The notes below the pieces were generated by a model that was given only the letters and a program-made list of their open reading frames with translations, was not told where the DNA came from and did not search any database. A stretch of 64,000 nucleotides of DNA, taken from the sequence record PQ657772.1; one strand, given 5' to 3'. This document shows positions 57,339 to 58,307 of the stretch, piece after piece (position 1 is the first letter of the stretch; the number at the start of each line of letters is the position of its first letter). Source of the DNA: Escherichia phage EC.P1. The position numbers were made by a program, and so were the translations under genes.

Positions 57339-58307
57339 TTAAAAATCTTCGAACTCATAACCTTTTGTCTTAACCATCTTACGCAGTCGTTCCATTGCTT
57401 CAGAGTACTTACGGTGCAATGAAGAACGAGCAGTCATGACCTTACCCTTCTCATCTTCAAAACCACTCTCAATGATTTCTCGTAGCGTTTCTGGTTCAGA
57501 ATAAGAACCAATACCATGTACACGTTCAATCAATTCACGGTCTTTGGCAGATAGGTTACTCATCATTTCTGCAATACTTTGTACCAGTGGGGTACTGACA
57601 GTTTCTACGCCTAAGTTGTAATCAGGTTCAACTGAAGTAACAATGTCAGATAATGTACTTTCTGAATCATTACTCATTTTCATATTCAATGCTACATAAG
57701 TGTTATTGTAAGTTAGACAATTCTTAACGTGTTGAATCTCAATACCAGTCTCTTTTGACACCATCTCAGGAGTTGGGTATTTACCATGTTTCCTTTGATA
57801 CTCTTCTACACAACGTTTCACATAAATGTTATTAACACTCATATAACGTGGGAAATGCACTAGATAATTAGCATCTGCACTTTCGTTATAGATTGTCATG
57901 TACACAGTTGTTGTTGCATATGTAATGAACTTGACATTTTTGGTAGTGTCGAACGTATGAATTGCTCGCATTAAACCTTCAACACCATAAGAAATCTTAT
58001 CTTCAAATGGGATGAAACATGTACACTTACGTGCAACACTTACTACCATTGGATAGTTGTAGCGAACCAAAAGGTCAATGTTCTTTTCAACGTCAATACC
58101 ATCACGCACTGCTTGGATTAACATTTCATTCGTTAGACCTTTAGGTCGGGTTAAGCTGATACCAGTTTTTGGCTTCTCAAACTTGTGACCGTCATGTTCT
58201 TCTTCTTCTTCGACGGAATCAAGAGCCTCTAATACGTTGACTTCTTCACTAGCAAAACACTCATCCAGTACTTCTTCAGAAATTGCATTTAAATCAAGCT
58301 TTTTCAC
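57339..58307 (-). CDS. sigma-70-family RNA polymerase sigma factor (phage-encoded)
   Basis: region 2 LVRYNYPMVVSVARK / GVEGLMRAIHTFD..KFITYATTTVYMTIYN; region 4 HTH LSAKDRELIERVHGI..ETLREI; acidic N-terminus. Confidence 0.8.
   Translation of the reverse strand: MKKLDLNAISEEVLDECFASEEVNVLEALDSVEEEEEHDGHKFEKPKTGISLTRPKGLTNEMLIQAVRDGIDVEKNIDLLVRYNYPMVVSVARKCTCFIPFEDKISYGVEGLMRAIHTFDTTKNVKFITYATTTVYMTIYNESADANYLVHFPRYMSVNNIYVKRCVEEYQRKHGKYPTPEMVSKETGIEIQHVKNCLTYNNTYVALNMKMSNDSESTLSDIVTSVEPDYNLGVETVSTPLVQSIAEMMSNLSAKDRELIERVHGIGSYSEPETLREIIESGFEDEKGKVMTARSSLHRKYSEAMERLRKMVKTKGYEFEDF

Follow-up and report, generated by a model that had tools for sequence, protein, structure and literature searches.

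An RpoD-like sigma factor of a Rak2/121Q-like jumbo coliphage and a candidate class of middle promoters with an altered -35 box

Introduction

The DNA analyzed here, a stretch of 64,000 nucleotides (nt) from Escherichia phage EC.P1 (PQ657772.1) that is referred to below as the window, encodes an RpoD-like sigma factor of 322 amino acids (aa), and comparative analysis suggests that this protein may serve a class of middle promoters with a non-canonical -35 box. A role of this kind is known from Bacillus phage SPO1, whose gp28 is an early product that replaces the host primary sigma factor on core RNA polymerase (RNAP) and thereby directs the enzyme to middle promoters, which differ in their -35 box. 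Phage T4 uses sigma appropriation by AsiA and MotA for middle transcription, and gp55, gp33, and gp45 for late transcription. The SPO1 sigma cascade has been summarized elsewhere (PMC13401047). The likeness of the window protein to gp28 is one of proposed function; it differs from the SPO1 system in being a long RpoD-like protein of three domains, and the late step of its phage appears T4-like, of the gp55 type and not gp33/34-like.

Likenesses to T4 include the replication and virion modules, a gp55-like sigma gene beside homologs of gp46/47, an ATAAATA motif resembling the T4 TATAAATA, and middle-type promoters that keep a sigma70-like -10 box and alter the box upstream. However, T4 encodes no RpoD-like sigma factor and remodels region 4 of the host sigma70, whereas the phage of the window brings its own sigma-4 domain. 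The best sequence and fold matches of the protein are bacterial group 1/2 sigma factors (RpoD, RpoS, mycobacterial SigA and SigB), which have the same order of sigma-2, sigma-3, and sigma-4. It shares with them the core-binding segment of region 2.2 and the A-11 pocket (F419, K426, and Y430), but is ~25% identical to them, has no Pfam match to region 1.2 or region 4, and carries an insertion in region 4.2. In comparison with sigma70, it also lacks the non-conserved region, and its acidic N-terminus is unrelated and predicted to be disordered.

Every group 2 jumbo phage has sigma factors, of which there is a minimal and an RpoD-like form (Iyer et al., PMC7824862), and the Rak2-like group ('group 2.2') has no RNAP of its own (PMC7824862); recognizable sigma homologs are usually found in those jumbo phages that lack an RNAP (Sokolova et al., PMC7598289). 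The paper on phage CBB covers an ortholog of the window protein and three bioinformatic promoter classes (PMC5259590), and sigma factors of this class are annotated or discussed also in PMC13070987. The targets read by the RpoD-like sigma factors of jumbo phages appear not to have been worked out previously.

Results

The sigma factor belongs to a separate clade of jumbo phage proteins

The window shares 99% identity with Ecwhy_1, fEgEco12, WPEC5, BF17, and other Escherichia phages with genomes of 350-385 kb, and by this similarity is part of a Rak2/121Q-like jumbo coliphage of ~350-385 kb. The preliminary description of this DNA, made from the sequence alone, considered a full sigma-70-like factor uncommon in coliphage-type genomes. 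This is true of the classical coliphages, but in the Rak2/121Q-like jumbo phages an RpoD-like sigma factor is the rule. The annotation itself is already known and ordinary in this group: the ortholog is called 'RNA polymerase sigma factor' in many close and more distant relatives, and named examples include fEgEco12 Gp519, 121Q gp167, CBB_513, RaK2 gp291, Serratia BF gp413, and Yen9-04 g498. Identity to the window protein amounts to 99% in fEgEco12, Ecwhy_1, and BF17, ~59% in 121Q, PBECO4, and phAPEC6, and 33-42% in RaK2, CBB, BF, and Yen9-04, the window allele being that of the Ecwhy_1/fEgEco12 sub-lineage. These orthologs match over their full length, including the N-terminal motif and the insertion in region 4.2, lie in the same neighborhood, and show no essential difference. 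PMC13070987 lists the Gp519 sigma factor as absent from Ecwhy_1; this genome has a 99.4% identical gene at 1665-2630.

The open reading frame (ORF) at 57339-58307 is uninterrupted, with exactly the ends given at the outset, and lies on the minus strand, which had been left unstated; each peptide string quoted from it earlier is present in the translation. Its proposed sigma-70-family identity holds, well beyond any chance resemblance, since Pfam, PHROG, NCBIfam, solved chains, and Foldseek all agree. In particular, two Pfam models exceed their gathering cut-offs, namely Sigma70_r2 (PF04542; 37.2 bits against 24, E=2.6e-9, aa 80-142), as expected from the region 2 recognized earlier, and Sigma70_r3 (PF04539; 44.4 bits against 25.3, E=1.8e-11, aa 163-225). 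The sole PHROG matched is 351, 'RNA polymerase sigma factor' (E=1.7e-47), and within it the protein falls into the subset formed by the Rak2-like RpoD-like clade; the T4 gp55-type late-sigma profiles (PHROG 12791 and 234) do not match it. NCBIfam yields sigma models alone, with RpoD-, RpoS-, and SigB-like ones at the top, all far under their equivalog cut-offs (RpoD_Cterm, 96 bits against 354; RpoS, 81.8 against 378.7), and region 1.2 (PF00140) has no Pfam match in the protein. The nearest solved chains are SigB, SigA, RpoS, and RpoD. The profile of the clade aligns to residues 373-578 of Escherichia coli sigma70 (E=2e-38). Among 1.84 billion representative proteins, only 19 clusters match at E<=1e-30, in most cases almost from end to end, after which a continuum of cellular sigma factors follows. 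The phage protein resembles the group 1/2 primary sigma factors, is not an RpoD or RpoS equivalog, and belongs to a separate clade.

The AlphaFold2 model built with the clade alignment comprises a confidently predicted sigma-2 domain (predicted local distance difference test, pLDDT, ~90), a sigma-3 domain, a four-helix sigma-4 domain, and a disordered acidic N-terminus. All top Foldseek matches of this model are sigma subunits, the first being the sigmaS chain 6omf_F (2.9e-11, 293 columns). The acidic character noted earlier for the N-terminus is evident from a net charge of -12 over residues 1-45; this region is sigma-1.1-like in charge only, with no homology detected. The N-terminal motif (aa 1-18, window 58254-58307) and the C-terminal tail KGYE(F/Y)EDF (aa 315-322, window 57342-57365) are invariant down to 48% overall identity, and these terminal peptides (the C-terminal one reads YEFEDF) might bind partner proteins.

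The functional roles of individual residues in E. coli sigma70 are established. Their counterparts in the phage protein are partly conserved: D103, F119, K126, and Y130 correspond to D403, F419, K426, and Y430, P453 is kept as well, and the conserved segment of region 2.2 consists of D103, G108, and G111-L-M. Other positions of region 2 have changed (Q406 to S, E407 to Y, Y425 to V, the melting dyad W433/W434 to T/T, Q437 to M, T440 to Y, and R441 to N), as have the extended -10 contacts H455 (to Y) and E458 (to V). Since the sigma70 residues that contact the -35 box, position -12, and the TG motif are substituted, the protein fits a changed specificity. It may bind core RNAP and direct promoter-specific initiation.

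Region 4 carries an insertion in the turn of the helix-turn-helix

A helix-turn-helix (HTH) in region 4 had been proposed together with region 2, and profile searches for both regions were named as the check on which the assignment might fail. The search for Sigma70_r2 gave a match and that for Sigma70_r4 none, so the result expected of a wrong assignment was obtained for one of the two regions. The predicted fold keeps the sigma-4 domain, whereas no Pfam region-4 model (Sigma70_r4 or r4_2) matches even at E<=10. Similarly, PF04545 has no precomputed match in any homolog of the phage clade, although the cellular homologs do match. The failure of Sigma70_r4 is explained by a clade-specific insertion in the turn of the region-4.2 HTH, ~8-10 aa long, with the pattern G(F/Y)xDxxGKx(I/V) found throughout the clade in an alignment of 25 sequences. 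In agreement with this, the alignment of the clade profile to sigma70 spans region 4.1 and the first HTH helix and ends exactly at the insertion turn (residue 578). Both the alignment and the predicted structure support a sigma-4 helical domain at the right position.

The helix that follows the insertion, TARSSLHRKYSEAMERLR, is the predicted -35 recognition helix. When it is aligned to sigma70 by hydrophobic register, R294, S295, H298, and R299 would correspond to R584, E585, R588, and Q589, respectively. The register given by MAFFT for E. coli region 4.2 was disfavored, as it places charged residues on hydrophobic positions.

Three classes of promoters in the phage genome

Promoters were counted in a 364-kb composite genome, made of positions 1-300 kb of fEgEco12 and the window. 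The sigma factor had been taken to imply a phage-specific promoter class; such a class was found, with a -35 box that co-varies with the recognition helix, which supports the implication without proving it. Class (a), of the TTGACA type, is represented by 92 coding-strand sites, compared with 8 on the opposite strand and an expectation of 8.6 for each strand, and is concentrated at 0-20 and 260-364 kb. For class (b), with the consensus G(G/A)GACA-16 nt-TGnTATAAT, the coding strand contains 31 sites and the other strand a single one, with 5.3 expected. Its spacer is exactly 16 nt in 26/31 sites, and the TGn extended -10 element is found in 23 of the 31, compared with 15/92 sites of class (a). 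It occurs mainly at 40-260 kb, before the genes for the sliding clamp, a gp32-like single-stranded DNA-binding protein (SSB), primase, exonuclease, topoisomerase II, and similar genes. The consensus may also be written GGGACA-16-TGATATAAT, as exemplified by the sliding-clamp promoter and by the one at 57303-57276 in the window, a candidate promoter of the cognate type for the phage sigma factor. The window has no copy of the CBB-type motif TGAAACG-N-TATAAT, as the -35 box of this lineage is GGGACA.

Class (c), ATAAATA, has only 48 sites in the 364 kb, on both strands, which precede the genes for capsid, tail sheath, and baseplate by 35-70 nt. There is strong avoidance of the T4-late-like motif TATAAATA in the window (1 copy compared with 12.7 +/- 4 expected), and the remaining ATAAATA copies are consistent with functional late promoters read by a gp55-like sigma factor. 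A protein of this kind is encoded by fEgEco12 g336, which matches the PHROG 'sigma factor for late transcription' (E=1.4e-152) and the gp55-type profiles PHROG 12791 and 234 and adjoins the gp46/47 homologs. As a separate gp55-type late sigma factor exists, class (b) is left as the natural target of the RpoD-like one. Another gene, fEgEco12 (PP777464.1) g276 at 119214-119546, annotated as 'putative sigma 54', was rejected as a third sigma factor, since it encodes a homolog of the Ribosomal_S30AE ribosome hibernation factor.

The -35 box changes together with the recognition helix

Promoters in front of orthologous genes could be compared for a structured RNA encoded downstream of the sigma gene. 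The RNA gene is preceded by GGGACA-16-TGATAnAAT in the window phage, UE-S1, and SE_PL, and the box of the 121Q promoter is the one-base variant GGGATG, whereas ATGAAAC-N-TATAAT takes this place in CBB, Serratia BF, Yersinia Yen9-04, and Erwinia Kaldavass. The recognition helices divide in the same way. Those of the GGGACA group follow the pattern xxR(S/T)S(L/I/V)HR (TARSSLHRKY in the window, KSRSSIHRKY in the 121Q type, KSRSSVHRKY in UE-S1, and SSRTSLHRCY in SE_PL), and those of the TGAAAC group share SKATLSRR (TSKATLSRRY in CBB and Yen9-04, SSKATLSRRY in Serratia BF), so that the change of the -35 box to TGAAAC in the CBB-like phages coincides with the change from R..H to K..S in the helix. 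The corresponding helices of RaK2 and EJP2 read TVRGTLHYKF and TNRCTIHRRY, respectively.

The same division is seen beyond the RNA genes. GGGACA-type promoters number 9 on the coding strand and none on the other at 200-265 kb of fEgEco12, and 11 and none at 55-155 kb of SE_PL, a stretch comprising a structural module (105-155 kb) and a replication module, and TGAAAC-type promoters are absent from both strands of these two stretches. At 225-275 kb of CBB, there are six TGAAAC-type promoters on the coding strand and none on the other, and no GGGACA-type promoter on either. Among 32 further copies of the RNA gene from IMG/VR, an upstream promoter is recognizable in 25; all 25 are of the class predicted from the lineage, and none is of the TTGACA type. 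Since the sigma factor of SE_PL is nearer to that of CBB (46% identity) than to that of the window (38%), and yet has the R..H helix and GGGACA boxes, the link between helix and box does not simply follow overall relatedness. Within sub-clades, the recognition helix is conserved even at 59% overall protein identity. Promoters with TGAAACG in front of genes for DNA synthesis have also been listed, independently, in the paper on CBB (PMC5259590).

Context of the sigma gene

The sigma gene starts 22 nt from the gene upstream and is the final member of a four-gene unit on the minus strand (59514 to 57339), which is probably driven by the two host-type promoters that precede it (Table 1). It is surrounded by a long series of small genes with dense, near-consensus host-type TTGACA promoters on the same strand. 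Such an arrangement is that of an early region dependent on host sigma70 and suggests early expression.

Directly after the stop codon lies an intrinsic terminator, GGGTTGAC-TTCG-GTCAGCC followed by T7, whose folded segment has an energy of -14 kcal/mol. The same hairpin occurs in combined terminator-promoter modules on the minus strand (36862-36833, 37445-37416, 42068-42039, 44829-44802, 45610-45581, and 49204-49175), where the -35 hexamer TTGACT is the 5' arm of the hairpin (GGGTTGACTTCGGTCAGCCC and a T-tract) and TATAAT follows 16-18 nt on; the copy after the sigma gene lacks a correctly spaced -10 box. Within the window, this 28-nt terminator hairpin is the only sequence that recurs from the gap downstream of the sigma gene.

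In comparison with the 121Q-type phages, the sigma gene and the HslV-like gene upstream of it (57339-58827) form a divergent island, with 59% aa identity of the sigma factors and no megablast match, whereas identity in the DNA on either side is 91-96%. Despite this divergence, the recognition helix is unchanged, RSS(L/I/V)HRKY. The island suggests either allele exchange or accelerated evolution.

A structured RNA downstream of the sigma gene

The gap that follows the sigma gene is 646 nt long and 91% identical across Asteriusvirus. It contains an RNA core of ~450 nt that is ~70% identical among phages with sigma proteins only 33-40% identical, and that always lies within an unannotated gap in the phages compared. 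Four paralogs are found in the genome, and each has a class (b) promoter 75-95 nt upstream. In an alignment of 12 sequences, 78 consensus pairs form 16 helices, and compensatory double changes occur in 41/78 pairs; 95.9% of cells are paired, compared with 37-46% when the partners are slid by 1-3 columns. Double changes account for 149 cells, compared with 12-25 in the slid and 48 in the shuffled alignments, and none of 500 shuffles reaches the observed value. Single-sequence folding of the noncoding gap is not decisive (z = -1.4 and -2.5), and the call of a structured RNA rests on the comparative analysis.

No Rfam 15 family matches, either in a gathering-threshold scan of the whole window or in permissive scans of the gap and seven orthologous loci, which gave weak terminator-like hits only; likewise, nhmmer detects no similarity between this RNA and the RNA-seq-defined noncoding RNAs ncRNA002 and ncRNA004 of PA5oct. 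The signature of the RNA is found only in jumbo-phage contigs of ~350-380 kb and their fragments, with 3-4 copies per genome; about 100 copies are recoverable from public genomes of jumbo phages. Of all features in the region, this RNA is probably the most novel. Genes for endonucleases of the HNH or EndoVII type lie near several copies (window 55449-56333, minus strand; fEgEco12 g253 and g339; SE_PL gp154), and this proximity may be a coincidence, homing endonucleases being common in these genomes, or a real association.

Other features of the window

Positions ~1746-11414 of the window duplicate the left end of fEgEco12 (~280-9617; the same promoters and flanks, offset by ~352.7 kb), and thus the window includes part of a long direct terminal repeat. 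This part is packed with strong early promoters with UP-element and TTGCAA. The sequence GTACTTGCA, considered as a new -35 element, was rejected: it belongs to a strong sigma70-type early promoter of the terminal-repeat region (UP-like A-tract, TTGCAA, 17 nt, TATAAT). The palindrome AGTACT is common to many near-consensus sigma70 promoters on the minus strand (for example 732-705, 994-966, 4388-4360, 39619-39592, 50983-50956, and 54945-54918), where it stands just upstream of the -35 box and again abutting the -10 box (cAGTACTa TTGACA n9 AGTACTG TATAAT). A phage regulator might use this palindrome as an operator, or it might simply mark a family of duplicated early promoters.

Opposite to the surrounding early genes, a plus-strand run at 17984-33490 contains ~12 ORFs of similar size (369-461 aa), which may form a paralogous family; relatives annotate one gene of this type as a structural protein. 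A scan of the whole window for tRNA and tmRNA genes found none.

Table 1. Positions of the sigma gene, its domains, and associated signals (window coordinates unless another genome is named)
Feature	Position	Strand	Details
Coding sequence, 322-aa RpoD-like phage sigma factor	57339..58307	minus	GTG start 58307-58305, TAA stop 57341-57339
Shine-Dalgarno sequence AGGAG	58314..58318	minus	6 nt before GTG; read from sequence
Acidic N-terminal region, codons 1-49	58161..58307	minus	predicted disordered; motif MKKLDLNxIxxEVLDECF clade-invariant
Sigma-1.2-like helix and sigma-2, codons 50-150	57858..58160	minus	Sigma70_r2 aa 80-142
Sigma-3 domain, codons 154-225	57633..57848	minus	Sigma70_r3 aa 163-225
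Sigma-4 domain, codons 241-315	57363..57587	minus	AlphaFold2 helices 241-250, 254-264, 275-281, 294-315; pLDDT 78-89
Insertion GFEDEKGKVM, codons 282-291	57435..57464	minus	predicted beta-hairpin in region-4.2 HTH turn
Predicted -35 recognition helix TARSSLHRKYSEAMERLRKM, codons 292-311	57375..57434	minus	R294 and H298 co-vary with -35 box
Intrinsic terminator of sigma operon	57306..57331	minus	stem 57331-57324 / 57319-57313, TTCG loop, T7 tract
Class (b) promoter after sigma terminator	57276..57303	minus	GGGACA 57303-57298, 16-nt spacer, TG 57284-57283, TACAAT 57281-57276
Conserved structured RNA core, 16 helices, ~445 nt	56785..57229	minus	first gene downstream of sigma; promoter 57303-57276
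RNA paralogs, fEgEco12 (PP777464.1)	~59916-60390, 110671-111081, 195789-196152		
Nearest upstream host-type promoter, TTGACT-17-TACAAT	59554..59582	minus	
Next upstream host-type promoter, TTGACG-17-TATAAT	59903-59875	minus	
Second class (b) promoter in the window, GGGACG-16-TATAAT	11387..11414	minus	

Discussion

Sigma-family membership, domain anatomy, an early-type context, three strand-biased promoter classes, and the co-variation of the recognition helix with the -35 box were all shown by the analysis. The explanation that we favor, and consider fairly probable on this comparative evidence, is that the sigma factor is made early, acts on host core RNAP, and reads the GGGACA-16-TGnTATAAT class as middle promoters through a re-specified sigma-4 domain bearing the insertion. 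Host sigma70-RNAP would transcribe the sigma gene early from TTGACA-type promoters. The product would bind the core of the host enzyme, the phage having no RNAP of its own, via conserved surfaces of sigma-2 and sigma-4, and would redirect it to the middle class G(G/A)GACA-16 nt-TGnTATAAT. Its targets would be the four structured RNA genes as well as the genes for primase, exonuclease, topoisomerase, the gp32-like SSB, and the sliding clamp. The non-canonical -35 box would be read by the altered helix of region 4.2 (R294...H298, after the inserted hairpin), and a separate gp55-like factor would serve the ATAAATA late promoters, giving a cascade from host sigma70 to the phage RpoD-like sigma factor and then to the gp55-like late one. 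We infer the core binding, the timing of expression, and the reading of GGGACA by this sigma factor rather than by another one.

Another factor is invoked by a T4-style appropriation, in which a MotA-like activator binds GGGACA or TGAAAC and host sigma70 reads TGnTATAAT, while the phage sigma factor, once the host one is inactivated, reads the TTGACA-type promoters as a substitute for sigma70. The -10 box and TG motif of class (b) are indeed canonical sigma70 elements, the residues with which sigma70 contacts TG are missing from the phage protein, and the TTGACA type is the most numerous class; moreover, hijacking factors, AsiA among them, can be encoded by group 2 jumbo phages (PMC7824862). 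Nevertheless, we regard this explanation as unlikely, as the box stands at the canonical -35 position with a fixed spacer of 16-17 nt, whereas the MotA box of T4 stands at -30, its sequence switches exactly with the sigma recognition helix (in three genomes and 25 further loci), and substitution of the -35-contact positions of sigma70 in the phage protein is contrary to the reading of TTGACA. Nor did any MotA- or AsiA-like gene come to light, though no search aimed at one was made.

Several points weigh against recognition of class (b) by the phage sigma factor. The co-variation amounts to approximately one evolutionary switch (GGGACA with R..H, TGAAAC with K..S) and hence is a correlation, which a co-evolving activator could explain equally well. 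Host sigma70 could use the class (b) sites as extended -10 promoters, their -10 and TG elements matching its own, and the phage protein lacks W433/W434, H455, and E458 of sigma70 though these elements are of the host type. With respect to the protein itself, the region-4 Pfam models are silent, the MAFFT alignment moves the recognition helix by one residue relative to sigma70, which makes the register uncertain, and the AlphaFold2 model is only moderate overall (pLDDT 72.7; predicted template modeling score 0.39). In addition, no experimental study of expression, binding, or transcription for any member of the clade was found in the searched literature.

It is very improbable that the protein is mainly a competitor or decoy that occupies core RNAP or sequesters a host factor for host shut-off with little promoter specificity. 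Loss of the melting residues W433/W434 would suit such a role, and the acidic N-terminus and the invariant terminal peptides could be protein-binding modules, but the DNA-binding domains sigma-2, -3, and -4 are all kept and confidently folded in the model, the recognition helix is conserved within sub-clades despite 59% identity elsewhere, and there is a dedicated promoter class with matching co-variation. Phage sigma factors often serve late genes, as T4 gp55 and SPO1 gp33/34 do. That the window protein reads the ATAAATA promoters of structural genes is nonetheless scarcely credible, as its gene has small genes of the early type as neighbors, a distinct late sigma factor of the gp55 type is encoded elsewhere, beside gp46/47-like genes as in T4, and ATAAATA resembles the T4 late promoter without a -35 box (PMC5259590), whereas this protein keeps a full sigma-4 domain.

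A broader version of the favored explanation would unite the multi-copy 445-nt RNA with the sigma factor and its G(G/A)GACA-16-TGnTATAAT promoters in one phage-specific regulon, where the R..H helix reads GGGACA and the K..S helix reads TGAAAC, and where the RNA family, confined to Rak2-like jumbo phages, is a dedicated output. The case for and against this extension is, in our judgment, evenly balanced. Irrespective of it, the adjacent RNA is a separate lead, being a large, well-supported family absent from Rfam 15.

The promoter assignment is a step beyond the known annotation, as it pairs the switch of the -35 box, from GGGACA to TGAAAC, with that of two residues of the recognition helix. 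If true, it would be a case from nature in which a sigma-4 domain bearing an inserted hairpin has acquired a new -35 specificity, and would define the temporal program of a group of phages used in therapy studies.

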